Origin: a phage
Length of the DNA: 64,000 nucleotides
Strand: one strand, 5' to 3'
Sequence record: NC_101837.1
A model generated the notes under the pieces. It searched no databases, had not been told where the DNA came from, and saw only the letters and a program-made list of their open reading frames with translations. This document shows positions 5,218 through 52,652 of the stretch, piece after piece (positions within the stretch are counted from its first letter, which is position 1; each line of letters opens with the position of its first letter). Position numbers and translations under genes: made by a program.

Positions 5218-5706
5218 ATGAAACTTGATAAAAATGTTCAACGAAAAGCTTTCTTGGATATGATCGCATATTCGGAAGGCACAGATAATGGTAGACAACC
5301 TACCAAGGATCGGGGGTACGATGTCATAGTCGGAGGCAAGCTGTTCAGCGATTACAGCAAGCATCCCGGTGTTTACGTTAAGCTAAATGCTAAGCTTACC
5401 TCCTCCGCTGCTGGGCGTTACCAGGTTTTGGAGAAGTTTGCTAAACACTACATGAAACAGTTAGGATTACCAGATTTTGGCCCTGACAGTCAGGACAAGA
5501 TTGCGTTGCAACTGATCCGTGAGTGCAAGGCTCTCGCCGACATTGATGAAGGGCGTATTCATCAGGCCATTTATAAATGCCGCAGCCGCTGGGCAAGCTT
5601 CCCACCACCGCCAGGGGCTGGAAAGCTGTACAATCAGCGAGCAGAAAGTATAGACAAGATGCTGGAGATCTTTAAGAAGGCAGGTGGAGTTGTTACAGAT
5701 GAGTAA
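5218..5706 (+). CDS. endolysin, lambda R-like lytic transglycosylase
   Basis: Near-collinear similarity to lambda R: QRKAFLDMIAYSEGTDNGRQ...GYDVIVGG...AGRYQ...RWASFP. Confidence 0.85.
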   Translation: MKLDKNVQRKAFLDMIAYSEGTDNGRQPTKDRGYDVIVGGKLFSDYSKHPGVYVKLNAKLTSSAAGRYQVLEKFAKHYMKQLGLPDFGPDSQDKIALQLIRECKALADIDEGRIHQAIYKCRSRWASFPPPPGAGKLYNQRAESIDKMLEIFKKAGGVVTDE

Positions 5707-6382
5707 CGGGATTGACTGGTGGAGTGTCTTTAGATACGATACAGGCACTGGAAGGTTGTTTTGGAAGTCCCCACCAAAAAACAAACCTCAACTGATGGGA
5801 AAGGAGGCTGGATGTACTAACATGGACGGGTACAGGGATATAATCTATCGCGGCGTGCATTACTACAGGCATAGATTGGTGTGGGAGATGCATTATGGAC
5901 CAATTCCAGAAGGGTACGAAGTTGATCACATAAAGCCACTTTTCTATTCCGATGGTGTTGCTGATGACAGGATAGAAAACCTACAACTGTTAACACCAGA
6001 AGAAAACGCAAAAAAGGCGGCAGATGACGGATGCCTGGCACGCAAGATACCTAAATCTAACACTGGACACTTGGGTGTATATTTTCATGCTAGAACTGGA
6101 AGGTATGCTGCTTTTGGTAAGGTAGGTCATTACTATAAGAAAGACCTAGGAGAATACGATACCTTAGAAGAGGCCCTTGCTGCTCAAAAGTCTTTTGAAA
6201 GTGGCACGTTTGTCAGGGAATATCGTGGACAGCCTTTAGGGAGGGATAAATCTAGAGGTGTCAGATTTGAAGCAGATAGGGGCAAATGGAAAGTAACTTT
6301 CAGAGGAAAAACGCTAGGCAGGTTTGACACCAAAGAGTCTGCTGAAGCGTGTTACGCAAAGGCTCTTGCTGAAAGATTGTAA
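5699..6382 (+). CDS. HNH homing endonuclease with AP2 DNA-binding repeats
   Basis: GYEVDHIKPLF...NLQLLTPEENAKKA HNH core; two AP2-like repeats (GVYFHARTGRYAAFGKV; GVRFEADRGKWKVTFRG); track start GTG 5684, ATG at 5699. Confidence 0.75.
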   Translation: MSNGIDWWSVFRYDTGTGRLFWKSPPKNKPQLMGKEAGCTNMDGYRDIIYRGVHYYRHRLVWEMHYGPIPEGYEVDHIKPLFYSDGVADDRIENLQLLTPEENAKKAADDGCLARKIPKSNTGHLGVYFHARTGRYAAFGKVGHYYKKDLGEYDTLEEALAAQKSFESGTFVREYRGQPLGRDKSRGVRFEADRGKWKVTFRGKTLGRFDTKESAEACYAKALAERL

Positions 6383-8914: not shown

Positions 8915-9246
8915 TGACTAAAAATTCTGTAGATAACGCAATTATGGAAGCTGTTTTTGAGGATGATCACACAACAGGGGCACTTAAAACAAAAAATACA
9001 TTCGTTGTTGCCACAGGTATGTGGCGGTTGTATGAAGATGACACCATTTCATACATCCTGTACACGGATGATTACGCAGATGACCGTGTATGGTCTGCTG
9101 TTTTAAAAGAGGATTGTGAGCTGATTGAGGGCGAGCGGTTATGCATGTTCACCAGTGTGGAAACAGATGTTAAGCTTTGCTCTCTCGTCTTGTTCAAAGA
9201 TAAGGCTTATGCTCCTGATGAAGGAGAGGAGGACGAGGAAGCATGA
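8911..9246 (+). CDS. hypothetical protein (111 aa, acidic C-terminus)
   Basis: Tiled ORF, ATGA overlap. Confidence 0.45.
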   Translation: MMTKNSVDNAIMEAVFEDDHTTGALKTKNTFVVATGMWRLYEDDTISYILYTDDYADDRVWSAVLKEDCELIEGERLCMFTSVETDVKLCSLVLFKDKAYAPDEGEEDEEA

Positions 9247-9872
9247 GAGAGCGTCTATTATCCATAGACCAGTCGTTGACACACACAGCTTGCGTTGTAT
9301 GGGACGATGGAAAGCCTGTTCATAAGGTTGTGTTACGAACTCAAAGCTCATCTGCAAAAGAGAAGAAACCAGGGACGGTTTCTTTTGCAACAGCTGCTGA
9401 GCGTATTGACTGGATCTGCAAACAGGTCAGGTATTATATCCACACGTACGGCGTTGACACCGTAGTTATGGAAGGGCTTTCCTTTGGATCACGCGGAGAT
9501 GCCACACGTGAACTGGCTGGGTTGTTTTACGGTCTTGAAGTTATGCTTTGGGATGCTTTAGCTGATTGTGAAAATGACGGCCTGTTTAAGGTCCACACAG
9601 TGACACCAACAACTGCCAAAAAGTTTGCTCGTAGTCATCTTCCTGAGGAACTTGCTTTCGAGGAGAAGAAAAAGCTTGACAAAAAGACAGGTAAAGAGCA
9701 TACTGTGAAGAAACCTGTTACGATGGATAAAAAGTTGATGGTTAAGGCCTGCGAAGTATCTGAACCTGGGTTCCTAGATGGGATCAATTTGGTACAAGGT
9801 AAGGCCGATCTCGCAGATGCTTATTGGATAGGCAGGGCGCATCTGGAGGGATTATCGCAAAGCGTAAAATAA
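9243..9872 (+). CDS. RuvC-like Holliday junction resolvase (putative)
   Basis: SIDQSLTHTACVV N-terminal strand, VVMEG, DLADAYWIG pattern of RuvC/YqgF fold; weak. Confidence 0.5.
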   Translation: MRERLLSIDQSLTHTACVVWDDGKPVHKVVLRTQSSSAKEKKPGTVSFATAAERIDWICKQVRYYIHTYGVDTVVMEGLSFGSRGDATRELAGLFYGLEVMLWDALADCENDGLFKVHTVTPTTAKKFARSHLPEELAFEEKKKLDKKTGKEHTVKKPVTMDKKLMVKACEVSEPGFLDGINLVQGKADLADAYWIGRAHLEGLSQSVK

Positions 9873-10429
9873 GAAAGAGAGCTGTCAAAGCCCCCGTTCA
9901 TAACGGGTGGTTAAAAGATTCTAAGGACATAGCCAACTTTCGAAAAGAATTGTCAGAGGAGCAGGATGGTCTTGATCCGATCTTGTGCGAGCCACTTCGT
10001 AAGCCTTGTTTGGATCATGACCATCTGACTGGTCGTTGCAGGGGTGTTTTGTCACAATGCACTAATACCTTTGAGGGGTATGTGCTTAAATACTGGATGA
10101 AATACTGTAACGAGTATACAGATTGCAGTTTATCAGAGGCGTTGCGCCGGATGGCTGACTATTTGGAGAAAGACTACAGCGACTTCCCGCTCCACAAAAA
10201 CTACAGAGATGATATGACAAAGTTCTTGAGGAGATGCTCTAAAGCTACGATCATTGCACGAGCAGAATCAGATCTCAATCTTGTCATTAATCCAGAGTGC
10301 ACCAAGCATGAGGCTATTGAGTTCTACATGCAAGAGTTTATAAAGAAAACTGAGGAGAGAGATTTCTATGGGGATGAAAAAGGTATTCAATCCTTGCGAC
10401 TCAGTCCTGATCAGGATGAAATACCGTAA
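9824..10429 (+). CDS. endonuclease VII-like recombination endonuclease
   Basis: CLDHDHLTGRCRGVLSQCTNTFEG matches T4 endo VII zinc/HNH motif; no in-frame ATG before motif, overlaps upstream gene by ~50 nt. Confidence 0.65.
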   Translation: MDRQGASGGIIAKRKIRKRAVKAPVHNGWLKDSKDIANFRKELSEEQDGLDPILCEPLRKPCLDHDHLTGRCRGVLSQCTNTFEGYVLKYWMKYCNEYTDCSLSEALRRMADYLEKDYSDFPLHKNYRDDMTKFLRRCSKATIIARAESDLNLVINPECTKHEAIEFYMQEFIKKTEERDFYGDEKGIQSLRLSPDQDEIP

Positions 10430-44953: not shown

Positions 44954-45160
44954 GGTTTTAACTCCTATCTATCCGGTTAATGATTGGAGGCCTCACCGCC
45001 CCCCCGACACCCTTTATTATCCATATTGTAGGACTTGATGCAAGTACTTCTTTAAAAATTTTTTAAGCGCCTTGGGGGCCGCTGTAACGCCAAAATAATA
45101 AAGGCTATGCAACCGCATAGCCTTTATGTGATTATATCGCTGCAGGCCCTGCCAGGGGCC

Positions 45161-45849: not shown

Positions 45850-45872
45850 TGATTATTTTAACAGGGTTTAAA

Positions 45873-45916
45873 TTTACTTTATTGATGGCCCTGGAGTCAA
45901 GGCCATCTAAAAATAA
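45873..45916 (-). repeat. 44-bp repeated intergenic hairpin element, copy A
   Basis: TTTACTTTATTGATGGCCCTGGAGTCAAGGCCATCTAAAAATAA; GATGGCC/GGCCATC stem; 1 mismatch vs copies B and C. Confidence 0.6.
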
Positions 45917-45919
45917 ATT

Positions 45920-46120
45920 TTACAGGCCTACAATCTCTTTAATTCGTTTTACTGCTGCCTCAGCGCCTTGAGGGTAAAAATTATGGTAACCAATCACGCG
46001 AGTGATACTAATCGCCGTTTGATGATCTTCATAATCACCTTTAAAGATTTCTTGACCGTCAATCAGCACGGCAATTTTTTCTTCTTTTTTGAAGTTAATA
46101 ACGCGGATATTGTTGCTCAT
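45920..46120 (-). CDS. hypothetical protein (66 aa)
   Basis: Tiled ORF ending 4 nt before repeat element. Confidence 0.45.
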   Translation of the reverse strand: MSNNIRVINFKKEEKIAVLIDGQEIFKGDYEDHQTAISITRVIGYHNFYPQGAEAAVKRIKEIVGL

Positions 46121-46400
46121 TTTGTTTCTCCTTTTGGAACTTTGTCTATGCGGTGGGGAGTGTCTCCCCGTTGATTGTTATTATCCATATTCTGGATCGG
46201 ATTGCAACACTCAGGGAGAAAAAAATTTGAAAAGTTAGGCCCCAGGGATCGGGGCCGTTATCAATTACTTACAGCGATAAAATACATCCCTACGCCTAAC
46301 AATATTTCAAGGGCGATGATCTCAAGCCATACCATAACACGGCGCGCCTTATCGGTGCGGGGCTTATCCTTGGGTGTCATCGTCTCCCCCTTTCCTCCTG

Positions 46401-46622
46401 TTAGCAGTGACGTGGTTTGCAATGGCCCCCAGGAGTATTATCACCACGCACATTACAAGAAAAATTATCTCTGTCGTTGTTCGATCCATTGTTATAAAAT
46501 TCCTTAAGATCAGGCCTGAAAATAAAGCTTTCGTTATTGAATCCATCCCGCCAGGCGGCTGGCTTCAAATCTTCACTAAAGGGGTTAATTAACGTGGCAT
46601 TATTTAAACGGCTGGTCCACAT
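46401..46622 (-). CDS. hypothetical Cys-containing protein
   Basis: ATG 46622 with GAGAGGAA RBS; overlaps small hydrophobic ORFs in other frames. Confidence 0.35.
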   Translation of the reverse strand: MWTSRLNNATLINPFSEDLKPAAWRDGFNNESFIFRPDLKEFYNNGSNNDRDNFSCNVRGDNTPGGHCKPRHC

Positions 46623-46971
46623 ATTTTCTATTCCTCTCAAATAGGCGATCCGCCTCAGTTAAACAAATCTCATGGGCGTGATCTCTGGTTTTAGCTTCAT
46701 CGAAAACCTGTTGTGCAAGGCTGCAACGTAGGGAGACTGGAAGATCGCTGTAGTAGGCGTTGACAAATGTTTGAGCGTCGTACAGGTCTGAAAATACTTT
46801 ACCCTTTCTATTATTCCCCTTGTCAACAATTGCAAGGATAACAAGTACAATAGTTGCAACCACCCCCAGGAAAATAGATATAATAAACCATAAAAAAGCG
46901 GATCTACCCATCTTGCCAGCGATCCAGGCGTTGAACAAGGCAACTACTACAGCCAAAATAATAAATTCCAT
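46600..46971 (-). CDS. membrane protein (N-terminal TM helices)
   Basis: ATG 46971 with AAGAGG RBS inside track ORF 46600..47106. Confidence 0.45.
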   Translation of the reverse strand: MEFIILAVVVALFNAWIAGKMGRSAFLWFIISIFLGVVATIVLVILAIVDKGNNRKGKVFSDLYDAQTFVNAYYSDLPVSLRCSLAQQVFDEAKTRDHAHEICLTEADRLFERNRKYVDQPFK

Positions 46972-47035
46972 TCTATGTACCTCTTTTGCAGTTCTGTTTA
47001 ACAATAAGGCGGCAAATATGCCGCCTGTTACCTGA

Positions 47036-47416
47036 TTAAAAATTATCGCCGTAAATCTTTCCGCTTTCTGCCCACACCACCACGCGGGGCATGTTATCCC
47101 ATACATCTTGTTTCAGATTTAACGCGTGCAATTCTTCGGTGGTGCTCATACCGGGCACGGGCTGATTGTATACTGCAAAACGACCGCCTGCATAATCATA
47201 GGCCAGAGTTAAATCACACTGGATCATCTTTTTGATCATGGCGTTAAGCATAGCGTTAGCCGCGTACTGGTCACGTTTTAAAGGCAACTCTTTGATTAGT
47301 TTGCGATAGTTTTCGATATGGTCGCACACTGTTTCACGTGGAAGATCTTTCATATCTTCACGGAATGTAACCAGGTTAAACATAACGGTGTCAATAGCTT
47401 TAGTAGTGTTTTTCAT
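47036..47416 (-). CDS. hypothetical protein (126 aa)
   Basis: Tiled ORF. Confidence 0.45.
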   Translation of the reverse strand: MKNTTKAIDTVMFNLVTFREDMKDLPRETVCDHIENYRKLIKELPLKRDQYAANAMLNAMIKKMIQCDLTLAYDYAGGRFAVYNQPVPGMSTTEELHALNLKQDVWDNMPRVVVWAESGKIYGDNF

Positions 47417-47507
47417 GATGTTTTCCTCTTTGTTTTGTGGGGGGGCAAGTCATCTCGCCCCTTGAGTTTTTAATATAGCAGGTTTTTAGATTATTGCAAC
47501 ACTTTAT

Positions 47508-48131
47508 TTATGAAAAACTCATCTCCCCATATTCATCCACATCAAACCGCCAATCATTGGCTTCAATAAGGCCGATCAGGTTTTCGGTAGTAAACTGTTC
47601 AAGATAGGCCTCCTCCAGGTCTACGTAAACCTTGCGGGATAGCTCCCGTACCGTCTCGGTGATCAGCTCTTCCAGCTCTTCAACTTTGTCCTCTTGCTTG
47701 GTGGTCAGGTCTAGCCAATTAGTATCGATGCACCCTCCTATTGTGTTTTCGTGATGATAATGGCTAAACGGGATACGTTCAACACTGGCTGATAACTCGC
47801 CATCGTGCATTGTGCCGAACAAGTGACGAATTGATCGGAACTTGGTCAGGGCCTTTACTTTACGCAAGAATTTTTCTAAATCCACGTTTTCAGCACTGAT
47901 TGACGCGCCATCGCCTTGACACCAAAAGCCGGACCAACGTATTTCGGTATCTTCAAGGCCGTACTCTGGAAAGACATATTCTTTATAGTGTTCAATTACA
48001 CTTTCTGCAAAAAAATTATCCCCGCTGTGTTCTTCTCTTTCGCGGACCATTTCAATAGCTTTTTCTTTTTGTTCGTCGGTCAGCACGTCGAAAGATAAAT
48101 TGTAACCTGTGGTAATGTTAACGGTGGTCAT
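47508..48131 (-). CDS. hypothetical acidic protein (207 aa)
   Basis: AGGAG RBS; leader hairpin upstream. Confidence 0.5.
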   Translation of the reverse strand: MTTVNITTGYNLSFDVLTDEQKEKAIEMVREREEHSGDNFFAESVIEHYKEYVFPEYGLEDTEIRWSGFWCQGDGASISAENVDLEKFLRKVKALTKFRSIRHLFGTMHDGELSASVERIPFSHYHHENTIGGCIDTNWLDLTTKQEDKVEELEELITETVRELSRKVYVDLEEAYLEQFTTENLIGLIEANDWRFDVDEYGEMSFS

Positions 48132-48188
48132 GATATTTTCTCCTATTTTCTTTGTTAGTGGCGGGAAGTTTTCCCGCCTGTGTGTTTA

Positions 48189-48216
48189 AGTATACTTATC
48201 GAGATTTACTTGTCAA
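48189..48216 (-). promoter_or_regulatory. sigma70-like promoter (leftward)
   Basis: Reverse strand TTGACA, 16 bp, TATACT; followed by hairpin GGCGGGA/TCCCGCC (48160-48178), RBS and ATG 48131. Confidence 0.5.
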
Positions 48217-48466
48217 CACTATTTTTTAAATTATTGTGGCGTAAAATGTTCAAGATCTCTTCAACGTCATCAACACGGCGGCAATTTTTAAACGCTACCA
48301 GTTGCCCCAGTATTTTAATCACTGGACGGCCTTGCCAGTGCCCTTGGAGAAAGCGAGCTTTAACTTTATCGGTGGAACTATCACGCCACCAAATGGCCTT
48401 GTTGTTGCAGTAGTAAAAATTATTCAGGACAACATCAACTTTATCAAAATTTTTTAATTTACGCAT
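48206..48466 (-). CDS. hypothetical protein
   Basis: AAGGAG RBS. Confidence 0.45.
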   Translation of the reverse strand: MRKLKNFDKVDVVLNNFYYCNNKAIWWRDSSTDKVKARFLQGHWQGRPVIKILGQLVAFKNCRRVDDVEEILNILRHNNLKNSVDK

Positions 48467-48498
48467 GGCGTTTACTCCTTTCTCTCTTTGATGTGGTT

Positions 48499-48526
48499 AG
48501 TATAGCTAACCTGTTTAAGATGTCAA
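48499..48526 (-). promoter_or_regulatory. sigma70-like promoter (leftward)
   Basis: Reverse strand TTGACA, 16 bp, TATACT. Confidence 0.5.
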
Positions 48527-48707
48527 GCTTTAAATAAAATCACTGTCAATGATATTTTTAACGCCATAAAACGGCCCTAAGCGATGTTTTCAGGTTAAAG
48601 GGGGGCGATTGCATAGGTGGGGCCTTTTTGGCGCTTACAGGGCCAACCGGGGGCGCTATTCGTAGGATAGAAATAAAAAGCCCCGCACAATGGCGGGGCG
48701 TTGGTTG

Positions 48708-48905
48708 TTATTTGCCTTTGTGGCGGTATCGTTCCGCCTGTCGTTCACGTTCCAAAAGCAGGCCCGGTAATTTGCGATCATAATGATTCCGCCAGATCTT
48801 CCCAAATCTTTTTGGCTTATTCAGTTTATTGTTGCGCTGGCGGCGTTCCGGCAGCTCTTCGGAAGCATGAGATCGCTTTACAATTTTCTCGAAATTAATT
48901 TTCAT
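48708..48905 (-). CDS. small highly basic protein
   Basis: MKINFEKIVKRSHASEELPERRQRNNKLNKPKRFGKIWRNHYDRK...; ATGA overlap. Confidence 0.4.
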   Translation of the reverse strand: MKINFEKIVKRSHASEELPERRQRNNKLNKPKRFGKIWRNHYDRKLPGLLLERERQAERYRHKGK

Positions 48906-49248
48906 ATATTCCCCCCTTGCTAACTTCAATATTGGCCTGAATAGCCCGGATACGGCGCTTTATAACTTCCTGATCTGTGTGGTCGTATCCCCAAAAGTCT
49001 ACAATTTTTGCGCCCCCCGCCTCCAGGCGGTATAGTGTTTCCTGCATTTTGTAAGCCGGGATCGGTCGCGGTGTTACTTGGTCACCTTCTTTATTTTTAT
49101 ACTTTATAATATAATCTTCGTTATCGTTGAATGCCCAAAATGGATATTCTGCAAGGGCGGTACTTCCTCTTTCCTTTTTATCCTGGATCTTATTTACAAT
49201 TAAAGCCGTAGCAATAGCGCCAATAATAAAACTTGCCCCGCTGATCAT
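48895..49248 (-). CDS. membrane-anchored protein
   Basis: N-terminal TM MISGASFIIGAIATALIV. Confidence 0.45.
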   Translation of the reverse strand: MISGASFIIGAIATALIVNKIQDKKERGSTALAEYPFWAFNDNEDYIIKYKNKEGDQVTPRPIPAYKMQETLYRLEAGGAKIVDFWGYDHTDQEVIKRRIRAIQANIEVSKGGIYEN

Positions 49249-49322
49249 GTACTTTCTCCTTTCATGGTGTTAATAAATTATCTTTATAGATGGCCCTGCA
49301 ACCAGGACCACCGAAAAAATAA

Positions 49323-49568
49323 CTATTTCACAATGCCTACAAAACAGATCCCGCCTTCACCTATATAAGCAATATCGGTCACTTTATAACTTGTCAAGAT
49401 CTGCTTATTTAGTTCATTAATAAAATCGGTCATTGCGTTGGTGTAGTTGTCTTCCGTGTCTAAGGCATAATCCCAGGTGTACACCTTTTTACGTCCGAAG
49501 CCTTTTACCATGATACGGGCGCTTTTGGTGTTGGTAGGGGCATAATATTTGGTGATTAGTGCTGCCAT
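49323..49568 (-). CDS. hypothetical protein
   Basis: Tiled ORF. Confidence 0.45.
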   Translation of the reverse strand: MAALITKYYAPTNTKSARIMVKGFGRKKVYTWDYALDTEDNYTNAMTDFINELNKQILTSYKVTDIAYIGEGGICFVGIVK

Positions 49569-49611
49569 GGTTTTAACTCCTATGCATTAGTTCAGTGTTA
49601 ACAGTATAAAG

Positions 49612-49655
49612 TTTACTTTATTGATGGCCCTGGTGTCAAGGCCATCTAAAAATAA
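49612..49655 (-). repeat. 44-bp repeated intergenic hairpin element, copy B
   Basis: TTTACTTTATTGATGGCCCTGGTGTCAAGGCCATCTAAAAATAA, identical to copy C. Confidence 0.6.
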
Positions 49656-49657
49656 GC

Positions 49658-49999
49658 TTACTCGTTTTCTTCCAGCTCCGCAAGCTCTTCTTTTGCTTCT
49701 TCTAACTCTGTCTGTAATTCCTGGTATTCTTCATCGTCCTCAATATCCAGGCTGTCGATGTAGTCGCTAAATCCGCAGCGGTAAGCGATAGGATCTAGCT
49801 CCTTGAGGATACGCGACGGAAGAAAAGAAATGTTTCCGATCATAATTTCGCCGTAGATCTCGTCTAACCATTCATCATAGTTTTCGTCGTACTTGTCCTC
49901 GTCGATTTCAAAGTTATCGATCTTATTCTCAAGGTCTGCGATCTGTTTTTTCAGTTCAGCGATCTGCATAGCTTTTTCTGAGGCGGTCATAGTAGTCAT
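49658..49999 (-). CDS. hypothetical acidic coiled-coil protein
   Basis: AAGGAG RBS; leader hairpin. Confidence 0.45.
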   Translation of the reverse strand: MTTMTASEKAMQIAELKKQIADLENKIDNFEIDEDKYDENYDEWLDEIYGEIMIGNISFLPSRILKELDPIAYRCGFSDYIDSLDIEDDEEYQELQTELEEAKEELAELEENE

Positions 50000-50050
50000 G
50001 GTGTTTTTCTCCTTTTGTGTGTTCTGGGAAGTTTTCCCGTTTATGTGCTT

Positions 50051-50078
50051 ATTATATCGATTTAAGTTAGCTTGTCAA
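50051..50078 (-). promoter_or_regulatory. sigma70-like promoter (leftward)
   Basis: Reverse strand TTGACA, 16 bp, TATAAT; hairpin GGGAA-GTTT-TCCC downstream then RBS. Confidence 0.6.
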
Positions 50079-50198
50079 TTAAAAGTTTAAGAAAAATTTT
50101 GCGACACCGTTGGCGCTACCCATCAACATTTGCGCCAGGATGTACCCAATGATGCAAACGATGATGGTTACCTTTGTGTGCTGGCGTGTAGTGCTCAT
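50079..50198 (-). CDS. small hydrophobic peptide (39 aa)
   Basis: GGAGG RBS 7 nt before ATG; MSTTRQHTKVTIIVCIIGYILAQMLMGSANGVAKFFLNF. Confidence 0.4.
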   Translation of the reverse strand: MSTTRQHTKVTIIVCIIGYILAQMLMGSANGVAKFFLNF

Positions 50199-50232
50199 CT
50201 TTAAGCCTCCTTTTCCGCTCAACTGTGGTTAG

Positions 50233-50276
50233 TTTACTTTATTGATGGCCCTGGTGTCAAGGCCATCTAAAAATAA
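50233..50276 (-). repeat. 44-bp repeated intergenic hairpin element, copy C
   Basis: Identical 44-mer to copy B, 2 nt after stop of upstream gene. Confidence 0.6.
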
Positions 50277-50278
50277 AC

Positions 50279-50674
50279 TCAATAAGTTTTTAGTACTTTC
50301 CCGTCCAATCTGTCAAGCTGGATCTCGATAGCTGCAGAAAACCTATTGTAAACCACATCGCCCAGGGAGTCCAGCCAATCTATGACGTTATATACCTGCT
50401 CTTTATTCTTGCAAGTCCGGATCCGTTTCATTACGTAAGACGGATCAATATTAGCGCTCTCGTTGTTGTGGTCCTGCGCCTGGCCTGCTGCGCTAGTTAT
50501 AGATTTTACAACCACCTGAAAGGGCTTTAAGGTGCCTTTTGCGTTCATCTCACGCGCTTTTGCGGCGCGGTTGTTATATGTTACACAACGGCGGCAAATG
50601 TTGACCAAATGCATATCAATAATTTTTTCATCGTTTGCCAGTTCGTTCATGATGCGGCGTACGTTCTTATTCAT
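50279..50674 (-). CDS. hypothetical protein (131 aa)
   Basis: RBS AAGGAAA; leader hairpin GGCGGGAA/TTCCCGCC. Confidence 0.45.
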   Translation of the reverse strand: MNKNVRRIMNELANDEKIIDMHLVNICRRCVTYNNRAAKAREMNAKGTLKPFQVVVKSITSAAGQAQDHNNESANIDPSYVMKRIRTCKNKEQVYNVIDWLDSLGDVVYNRFSAAIEIQLDRLDGKVLKTY

Positions 50675-50722
50675 GATCTTTTTCCTTTGTGCTGGCGGGA
50701 AACATTCCCGCCTTTTGTGTCT

Positions 50723-50750
50723 AGTTTACTTAAATTTTGCAGCGTGTCAA
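50723..50750 (-). promoter_or_regulatory. sigma70-like promoter (leftward)
   Basis: Reverse strand TTGACA, 16 bp, TAAACT; then hairpin 50694-50712. Confidence 0.5.
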
Positions 50751-52031: not shown

Positions 52032-52050
52032 GAGAATGATTATCATTCAA
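52032..52050. promoter_or_regulatory. Fur-box-like palindrome (site 2)
   Basis: GAGAATGATTATCATTCAA; core AATGAT-T-ATCATT is a perfect 6-1-6 palindrome matching Fur-box core. Confidence 0.35.
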
Positions 52051-52161
52051 GATTCTAAATGAGAACTCCTCGCATTTAATAAATTTAATTAGCACGCTAA
52101 TTACCCTCCGTAACAATTTACTATAAAATAGTATCCACTAAAATATTCCCATATAGAAATT

Positions 52162-52340
52162 TTAAAAATCCATTTCTGAAAACGAAAAATCGATTTCGTC
52201 CCCAAAAATTTCAGGTTGAGAGCCGGAACGATTTCCAGAAAATCCGATTCAGAAAACGAAAAACAGGTCGAGTACTGAGAAATTTATCGAGAAAAATTTT
52301 CAGAAAATCCAAGCCCTGAAATGAAAAGTAGATCGAGTAC
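52162..52340. repeat. degenerate tandem repeats (about 65-bp period)
   Basis: CAGAAAATCC...AGAAAACGAAAAACAGGTCGAGTAC and CAGAAAATCC...TGAAATGAAAAGTAGATCGAGTAC plus a third degenerate unit; GAAAATCC motif recurs to about 52610. Confidence 0.45.
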
Positions 52341-52652
52341 CTGGAAAGCTGCACCGCAACTTCAAGATAGCGGTTAGATTGTTACCATAGAAGGTCAAGG
52401 GTAAGTGGAGGAAGTTCTAGTAGAGGGAGGTTAGCATGTGTGGGAAATCTATAATGGTGGCCTGGAATATGGTGCAAACGATAGGATGAGTTATTCAGCT
52501 TGTCGCGCCTACTCTGAAAAATCCATTTTAGTTTTCGATCCATTTTCTGATTTTCTAAGAATTTTAAAATATCCAGCCCGGTGAAATATCAAAAGGAGGA
52601 AATCCATTTTAGAAATCCCCCTTATACTTGATATGCCAGGAATTTTCAAGTA

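Follow-up and report, generated by a model that had tools for sequence, protein, structure and literature searches.

PeSL (promoter-early stem-loop) cassettes, first described in RB49 (PMC2839356), occur in the T4-type phages RB49/phi1, T4/PST and KVP40/nt-1 (Arbiol et al. 2010, PMC2839356; Comeau et al. 2014, PMC4122927). They are short repeated cassettes that bridge a stop codon and the next Shine-Dalgarno (SD) sequence in an early region packed with ORFans. Each contains an AT-rich tract, the -35 and -10 boxes of a sigma-70 promoter, and a stem-loop that possibly overlaps these boxes and has G.U pairs on the sense strand; the cassettes are crossover points for a modular shuffling of genes. 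In RB49, the promoter is close to consensus and its 17-nt spacer houses the hairpin of 7–8 bp. The expression of a downstream lacZ was reduced as much by a PeSL stem-loop lacking an obvious U-tract as by rrnB T1 (PMC2839356). The early RNase III sites of phage T7 (R0.3, R0.5, R1, R1.1 and R1.3) are sequence-related intercistronic hairpins of a polycistronic early mRNA. Their GC upper stem measures about 10 bp and has a loop of 4–5 nt; together with an asymmetric internal loop and an AU lower stem, it spans about two helical turns. The REP/BIME (repetitive extragenic palindrome/bacterial interspersed mosaic element) palindromes of Escherichia coli stabilize the 3' end of mRNAs and are sometimes found less than 15 nt from stop codons. 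Here, a repeated intercistronic element of 51 nt is analyzed in a phage DNA stretch of 64,000 nucleotides (NC_101837.1), hereafter the window. The conserved and selected feature of this element is, with high confidence, a hairpin of the coding-strand RNA. On balance, the element is best read as a PeSL-like composite cassette located between cistrons in the ORFan region, presumed to be early, of rV5-like phages, and it resembles known regulatory cassettes of phages more than a novel type of system.

The 6-kb stretch of the window around the element is 94–98% identical to more than 100 rV5-like coliphages (Vequintavirus), the closest match being WalterGehring (98.1%). All genes in this region run leftward. 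A preliminary description, made from the sequence of the window alone, had reported a 44-mer at 45873, 49612 and 50233 (copies A, B and C), with a 7-bp stem and a 10-nt loop containing TTGACA. The 44-mer was found at all three positions; copy A departs at one base from copies B and C, which are identical. A 24-nt core has 3 matches in the window and none in 100 shuffled versions. The three copies are real, but a fourth and diverged one had been overlooked. This copy D was found by a repeat search (repeat family D1) at 49276-49324, with 69% identity and directly past a stop codon. As had been stated, the copies adjoin the stop codons of leftward open reading frames (ORFs), starting 2–3 nt past the stop. 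When the full element is considered (Table 1), the stop codon (TAA, TAG, TAA or TGA) and the beginning of the lower stem overlap in each of the four copies (positions -1 to 3 of the model described below), and the first base of copy A is the end of the TAA stop of ORF 45920..46120. An SD sequence and an ATG follow 25–45 nt later. The genes beside all copies belong to PHROG families of unknown function.

Table 1. Copies of the element in the window, with the promoter cassettes and terminators of the transcription units that contain them. Scores are from the covariance model; folds are given for the minus strand, with z-scores in brackets.
Feature	Coordinates	Strand	Description	Score (bits)	Fold (kcal/mol)
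Copy A	45870..45920	minus	51-nt two-tier hairpin cassette; TTGACT 45900-45895, TAAATT 45876-45871	81.1 (plus strand 40.9)	-23.6 (z -6.3)
Copy B	49609..49659	minus	after ORF 49658..49999 (113 aa); TTGACA 49639-49634, TAAACT 49615-49610	78.6	-22.3 (z -5.2)
Copy C	50230..50280	minus	after ORF 50279..50674 (131 aa, TGA); TTGACA 50260-50255, TAAACT 50236-50231	79.3	-25.1 (z -6.8)
Copy D	49275..49325	minus	after ORF 49323..49568 (81 aa, TAG); no -35 hexamer	67.6 (plus strand 28.7)	-24.6
Standard promoter cassette before copy-B gene	50020..50078	minus	TTGACA-16-TATAAT (50078-50051) and 5' hairpin 50039-50025		
Standard promoter cassette before copy-C gene	50694..50750	minus	TTGACA-16-TAAACT (50750-50723) and 5' hairpin 50712-50694		
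Promoter-like cassette before copy-A gene	46151..46207	minus	TTGCAA-16-GATAAT (46207-46180) and 5' hairpin 46173-46151		
Canonical intrinsic terminator	48680..48699	minus	GC stem and U-tract; ends operon with copies B and D; annotated in relatives		
Canonical intrinsic terminator	45098..45127	minus	ends operon with copy A; annotated in relatives		

The coding-strand RNA of every copy folds into the same two-tier hairpin. The lower stem is AU-rich and comprises 10 bp, formed by A/GUUUAUUUU with AAAGUAAAC/UU. It is separated by an internal loop, whose 5' side has 2 nt and whose 3' side has 3, from a GC-rich upper stem, also of 10 bp, formed by GAUGGCCUUG with CAGGGCCAUC including one U.G pair, and topped by a tetraloop. 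The two tiers together amount to about two helical turns. The hairpin of the preliminary description therefore exists, but in the coding-strand RNA its upper stem has 10 bp rather than 7, because of the U.G pair and two further pairs, and a tetraloop in place of the 10-nt loop, and the AU-rich outer stem (UUUAUUUUU / AAAGUAAA, 10 bp), which completes a two-tier helix of 20 bp, had been missed. The minimum free energy on the minus strand ranges from -22 to -25 kcal/mol among the four copies (z-scores of -4.7 to -6.8), versus -16 to -18 kcal/mol on the plus strand, where copy D reaches only -10.4 kcal/mol (z -1.0). Copy D reads GGUGGUCCUG-GUUG-CAGGGCCAUC; the TTGACA has fully gone, and all 20 pairs are still present owing to three extra G.U pairs and two swapped pairs in the lower stem. 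A covariance model built on five copies hit the window at these four places and no others, and scored the minus strand about twice as high as the plus strand. When the 42-64 kb part of the window was folded in a sliding manner, the only hairpins of the two-tier design were the copies of the element. The other intergenic hairpins found there were terminators with a GC stem and a U-tract, or short 5' hairpins.

Covariation was examined with 58 copies (37 distinct) from 16 sequence sources, representing about 14 distinct genomes. Standard pairs occupy 98.9% of the pair cells, versus 36–55% when the partners are slid by 1–3 columns. Compensatory double changes are present at four pairs of the lower stem, in 38 cells, a figure reached by none of 500 shuffles, although these counts overstate the independent events because the copies are closely related by shared ancestry. 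At the five variable pairs of the upper stem, the change is one-sided and always goes through G.U. As these changes keep the pairing on the coding strand alone, they point to an RNA and argue against a duplex-DNA operator or a cruciform. The same 20 pairs were recovered by RNAalifold from an unfitted MAFFT alignment, three of them with compensatory changes. The hairpin of lineage D, without -35, is found in every genome whose fetched stretch covers the D slot. In one copy, a one-base insertion in the loop (TTGATA) brings the hexamer spacing to 20 nt and the stem is kept. Of the suggestions of the preliminary description, a structure-gated promoter and a protein-binding DNA site are not supported by these results: the selected fold exists on one strand only, through G.U pairs, lineage D keeps it without any -35, and the left arm alone varies, solely by wobble-compatible transitions. 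An RNase III-type processing site agrees with the interrupted helix of two turns, the strand specificity of the covariation and part of the published determinants, and a sigma-70 promoter in copies A–C is backed by the homology with standard promoter cassettes and by the recombination junctions described below.

Slot C of phage Gotham (L003:4380-4425) differs from all this by a 5-nt deletion (GGGCC) that ruins the upper stem and sets the hexamers 13 nt apart. Either the copy is dead in nature or the sequence contains an error.

The preliminary description had proposed to look for the element in related phage genomes, and it is indeed conserved there. A BLAST search found it in 121 phage records, all Vequintavirus except the phi92-like phage KKE7M (Justusliebigvirus), with three places per genome in most. 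In 13 further Vequintavirus sequences, each covered orthologous slot contains a copy, and four copies are present wherever the stretch spans all slots. The orthologous slots are fixed in about 120 genomes. Pattern scans for the hairpin core in IMG/VR and in JGI metagenomes returned about 150 loci, of which only the rV5-like contigs were true; the remaining ones are chance GC palindromes according to the covariance model, so that the diversity gained was small. A host origin was rejected, as no sequence relative of the element was found in 5,426 E. coli genomes. Neither an Rfam family nor a host REP element gave a significant match: an Rfam scan of the 43-54 kb part with permissive E-values yielded sub-threshold noise, the top hit having 23 bits when the gathering score is 55. 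Loci encoding homologues (47–61%) of the 113-aa neighbour (L006-L012) contain no copy and no analogous repeated hairpin. Neither transcript mapping for Vequintavirus or phi92-like phages nor an earlier description of the element was found in the literature searched.

The copies are embedded in transcription units. Behind promoters P50750, P50078 and P46207, the first cistron is followed by copies C, B and A, respectively; copy D comes after the second cistron. With a promoter upstream and a terminator at the end of the operon, the elements are intercistronic and located inside transcripts. As the preliminary description had noted, no U-tract is found 3' of the hairpin on the coding strand of any copy and the element is not a canonical terminator; the true terminators of the region are elsewhere. 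The elements were not reported by a terminator scan, their 3' flank being AAUAAAGUAAA, and none of the terminators annotated in the relatives is at an element site. The region is taken to be early from its sigma-70 promoters, its small ORFans and the transcription units proposed in the rV5 genome paper (PMC3606486).

In copies A–C, the hairpin overlaps a putative sigma-70 promoter. The hexamers match 9–10 of the 12 consensus positions, with TTATTTTTA upstream, and the 18-nt spacing between TTGAC(A/T) and TAAA(C/T)T reported initially was found in all three. The TTG closes the upper stem, ACN opens the loop, and TAAAYT lies in the 3' arm of the lower stem. This -35/-10 arrangement is not present in copy D. 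In random hairpins of the same design and composition, a comparable -35/-10 pair is expected in 1.1%. The loop bases A and C are invariant in the 42 A–C copies and the next loop base is any of the four, which is what a TTGACn -35 would impose, and not RNase III, for which published work found no loop-sequence requirement (PMC1540722). The strong promoters of the phage follow one pattern, in which an AT-rich tract precedes TTGACA (or TTGCAA) and a spacer of 16 nt leads to TAnnnT. A GC hairpin of the GGCGGGAA..TTCCCGCC type starts 11 nt past the -10 in most of these standard promoters, and the primary transcripts would therefore start with a 5' stem-loop. The standard cassette is common to rV5-like and phi92-like phages. 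The element aligns over its full length with the standard promoter cassettes, which themselves are without RNA structure, and the spacer and -10 of the promoter of the copy-C gene are homologous to the 3' part of the element. One GenBank record tags the copies as 'promoter predicted by PhagePromoter'.

Further insight comes from KKE7M. A block of 475 bp with 93.5% identity is common to this phage and the window. It begins with the -35 of the promoter at 50078 and ends 3 nt beyond copy B, which forms its right-hand edge. The promoter at the left-hand edge of this mobile block is the annotated sigma-70 promoter P192 of the rV5 record. Other phi92-like genomes are without the block. When KKE7M (L004) is compared with the phi92-like phage Paula, the homology ends at 5604, in a promoter spacer, and resumes at 6041, within the AAUAAAGUAAAUU of the element. 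Both crossovers (L004 5584-5604 and 6041-6057) were therefore within shared promoter or element segments of 17–21 nt. In Paula, the orthologous downstream gene is preceded by TTGCAA, 16 nt ending with AAATAAAG, TAAACT and a 5' hairpin. In KKE7M, the element provides the -35 and the spacer, followed by Paula's 5' hairpin at the usual distance, and is the sole promoter candidate in front of the gene. As judged from these break points, the use of the cassette as a recombination boundary is shown once. The view that the hexamers are coincidental was dropped after the comparison of Paula and KKE7M and the 1.1% chance estimate. It is because of this estimate, of the invariant A and C in the loop and of the phi92-like comparison that the promoter view was adopted, and the sequence comparisons make an active sigma-70 promoter in copies A–C a reasonably likely feature.

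The phi92-like phages also contain a second two-tier hairpin, of unrelated sequence, in KKE7M (L004:4466-4530) and Paula (L173:566-628). It starts at a stop codon, TTG closes its stem, ACA opens its loop, and CATAAT is found 17 nt later. The fold has an energy of -27.5 kcal/mol (z -6.6). The KKE7M and Paula versions differ by a single C-to-U change, which keeps a G.U pair.

The likeness of the hairpin to RNase III substrates was examined with the rules established for the E. coli enzyme (Pertzev & Nicholson 2006, PMC1540722; Altuvia et al. 2018, PMC6212723). About two helical turns are required, and internal loops are reported to confine cleavage to one of the strands, a protective 3' hairpin being left behind (PMC1540722; PMC6212723). 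The element has two turns, made of 10 + 10 bp across the 2/3-nt internal loop and conserved with covariation. The boxes were scored with the consensus of Pertzev & Nicholson (PMC1540722), in which the proximal box has G-C at position pb1, A-U or U-A but neither G-C nor C-G at pb2, A-U at pb3, and A-U, U-A or a non-Watson-Crick pair at pb4. Fifty-seven of the 58 copies were scored (42 A–C and 15 D), the Gotham deletion copy being set aside. In the upper helix of the A–C copies, the distal box next to the closing pair has U-A in 42/42 and U.G in 41/42, a match that is confounded because its U's are the TT of TTGACA. The middle box is favourable and pb2 is A-U in 42/42. In the lower helix, the 3' arm reads AAAG....UU in all copies and the pairs pb4 to pb1 are A-U, A-U, A-U and G.U in 56/57, the remaining copy having A-U at pb1. 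The distal box of the lower helix of D has U.G/U-A in 15/15 and 12/15 copies. The internal loop has an invariant AU on its 3' side, (A/G/U)AU, and the hairpin is in an intercistronic position within promoter-terminator units. By analogy, a cut is predicted after the (A/G/U)AU, between ..CCAUC-AAU and AAAG... In copy B, the predicted RNase III-type cut would be between 49620 and 49619, possibly with a second one between U12 and A13 (49648 and 49647).

The T7 early sites were folded for comparison. R0.5, R1 and R1.1 match the architecture of the element, with a stop codon in or at the lower stem. Promoters are located beside or over the T7 sites, and the U-A/U.G distal box, the A-U at pb2 and a (U/A)AU before the known or predicted cut are shared features. 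R1.1 contains a similar motif, ..CCUU-UAU-GAUUG, which RNase III cuts after UAU. The T7 sites and the element have no homology and no Rfam hit links them, the element's pb1 and pb3 are off the optimum, and its cleavage is only predicted. In addition, the T7 sites have no -35 hexamer in their apical loop, unlike the element. The complete two-turn helix, including the weak AU lower stem, would not be needed to block an exonuclease or for a promoter. As the distal-box match of copies A–C is confounded, cleavage of the hairpin by RNase III is considered plausible by analogy, at somewhat less than even chances; an uncleaved stabilizer or attenuator is the fallback reading.

If the element is a composite cassette, the hairpin would act on read-through mRNA originating from the standard promoter upstream. 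Host RNase III would cut it at the 3' side of the internal loop, in the style of the T7 early sites, leaving the promoter-proximal cistron as a short mRNA capped by a hairpin at both its 5' and 3' ends. Left uncut, the hairpin could be a barrier to 3' exonucleases or an attenuator. In copies A–C, the embedded sigma-70 promoter would restart transcription for the next cistron, and copy D would be a hairpin-only derivative. As seen in one case, the cassettes and the standard promoters provide short patches of homology by which promoter-ORF-hairpin modules move between phage subfamilies. A more elaborate proposal, which we regard as unlikely, is that of portable self-insulating modules, in which an RNase III cut over the embedded promoter would produce doubly hairpin-protected monocistronic mRNAs, combined with promoter restart, gating by the stop codon and spread of ORFans. 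The cut could depend on translation terminating at the stop codon within the lower stem, and crossovers at the cassettes could spread ORFans between Vequintavirinae and Stephanstirmvirinae.

A number of observations weigh against the composite cassette. Among the 33 promoters and 20 terminators of the rV5 genome paper (PMC3606486), not one is at an element site, and the sole promoter annotation is a software prediction in one record. The spacer of copies A–C has 18 nt, their -10 is weak, and the copies of the window are without the 5' hairpin that follows most strong promoters of the phage. Regarding RNase III, besides the confounded distal box of copies A–C, the upper helix has U-A at pb1, where G-C is optimal, and G-C at pb3, where A-U is optimal, and that of lineage D has G.U at pb2 and C-G at db2. 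The covariation counts are inflated by common ancestry, and the evidence for recombination is a single event. Cleavage, attenuation and promoter firing are all deduced from sequence.

Other explanations give the elements of this picture different weights. The hairpin could be all that matters, as an RNase III site or a 3' stabilizer of the upstream cistron, the hexamers being an inactive vestige of an ancestral promoter cassette. This would suit the conservation of lineage D without a -35, the spacer of 18 nt versus 16 nt in the strong promoters, and the window copies without a following 5' hairpin; moreover, TTG and TAAAYT are constrained by the pairing anyway, and one copy tolerates a spacing of 20 nt. 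It is nevertheless improbable in view of the A and C of the loop, which are needless for pairing and invariant in 42 copies, and of KKE7M, where the element is the only promoter candidate at the place of Paula's standard promoter, with a 5' hairpin at the usual distance. The opposite explanation holds that the element is mainly a sigma-70 promoter and that the palindrome is a DNA operator for a dimeric regulator of the phage or the host, or incidental, the RNA fold having no role. The perfect -35 is preceded by an AT-rich tract and surrounded by a 7-bp inverted repeat, and PhagePromoter predicts a promoter. However, the variation keeps RNA pairing on one strand via G.U, and the left arm alone changes, although in an operator both half-sites should be under equal constraint. 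Compensatory double changes are present in the AU lower stem, which extends over the UP-like tract and the -10, lineage D is conserved without a promoter, and the standard promoters do without such a fold. This explanation appears very unlikely.

That the element is a terminator or attenuator of the PeSL type, which would halt the read-through polymerase without a U-tract and without a nuclease, is suggested by the effect of the PeSL stem-loop on lacZ, similar to that of rrnB T1 (PMC2839356). Against this, no U-tract follows either tier in any copy, canonical terminators are present at the operon ends, and the selection on the whole two-turn helix would be left unexplained. A full stop at copy D would also silence the downstream cistrons, because these have no promoter of their own. 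Such a role appears quite unlikely. The presence of the -35 at the apex, both here and in the phi92-like hairpin of unrelated sequence, could evoke a structure-gated promoter, i.e. a DNA hairpin or cruciform with the -35 in the loop, in the style of the N4 virion RNA polymerase; likewise, several near-identical copies could evoke a selfish repeat resembling miniature inverted-repeat transposable elements. The complementary strand folds poorly, and not at all in D, which disfavours a cruciform, and the authors of the rV5 genome paper consider that the host RNA polymerase is used throughout (PMC3606486). As for a selfish repeat, the copies do not vary in position but are tied to orthologous slots in about 120 genomes, and there are no copies in E. 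coli or outside these phages. Both possibilities are extremely improbable. The element belongs to no Rfam family and is neither a terminator nor a host repeat nor a promoter gated by DNA structure.

Two candidates were rejected. A hairpin promoter of the N4 type had been suggested by the presence of three copies near one genome end; the loop size, the fold on one strand and the use of the host RNA polymerase speak against it. Stop-codon readthrough or recoding of the SECIS (selenocysteine insertion sequence) type was discarded because TAA, TAG and TGA all serve as stops here and further stops appear in frame within a few codons.

Of the systems presented above, the PeSL cassettes have much in common with the element: short repeated cassettes between the stop codon and the next SD sequence, an ORFan-packed early region, AT-rich tract, sigma-70 boxes with a stem-loop that may overlap them, G.U pairs on the sense strand, and the role of crossover points. 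They differ by the absence of sequence homology and by the phage family, the BLAST hits of the element being in Vequintavirus and one Justusliebigvirus. In contrast to the hairpin of RB49, the element has a two-tier helix of 20 bp that covers the UP-like tract, the -35 at its apex and the -10; its spacer measures 18 nt and its -10 is weak. Unlike PeSL, it includes a lineage (D) that consists of the hairpin alone. With REP/BIME, the element shares repeated intercistronic hairpins located just past stop codons that could block 3' exonucleases. It differs from them by the two-tier AU/GC design, the embedded promoter and its restriction to phages.

The early regions of rV5-like and phi92-like phages, coliphages in wide use for therapy and as models, are made up almost wholly of ORFans. 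The element, as a covariation-supported family with four fixed slots per genome, is a handle on the expression of these regions. It suggests that mRNA processing as in T7 and shuffling as with PeSL reach beyond the phage groups in which they were first described. With its 51 nt, the element could serve in synthetic operons as a compact insulator or processing part. Should the predictions fail, it would be an ordinary conserved intergenic hairpin.

A few additional observations were made. In the window, further standard promoter cassettes are present on the minus strand at 48216-48160, 47499-47442 and 44383-44334, besides those of Table 1 (50750-50694, 50078-50020 and 46207-46151). In KKE7M (L004), standard cassettes are at 2298-2716, 5267-5344, 8977-9040, 9533-9595 and 9822-9885. 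Each copy of the element contains one Dcm/EcoRII site (CCWGG), which is CCAGG in the 3' arm of A–C and CCTGG in the 5' arm of D; the differing positions in the two lineages are probably a coincidence. In the rV5 record (DQ832317, L168), ORFs 205, 206, 209 and 210, just upstream of the region, resemble hypothetical proteins of RB49 according to the depositors' note, which hints at an exchange of early ORFans between these unrelated myoviruses.

About 17–22 GenBank records entitled 'Campylobacter phage' (e.g. MG065635, MG065666 and MG065639) are 94–97% identical to rV5-like or phi92-like coliphages. At least MG065666 is marked UNVERIFIED, and several are without annotation. These records are probably mislabelled or propagated contaminants. 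Finally, a non-coding stretch of about 370 nt at 52050-52420 of the window may correspond to the 'non-coding' box of the rV5 genome map. It contains three direct repeats of about 47 nt (AAAATCC..GAAAACGAAAAA..) at 52165-52211, 52239-52285 and 52304-52350; one of these repeats folds into a long AU-rich hairpin. The phi92-like phage KKE7M (L004) has a similar triple repeat at 1044-1264.

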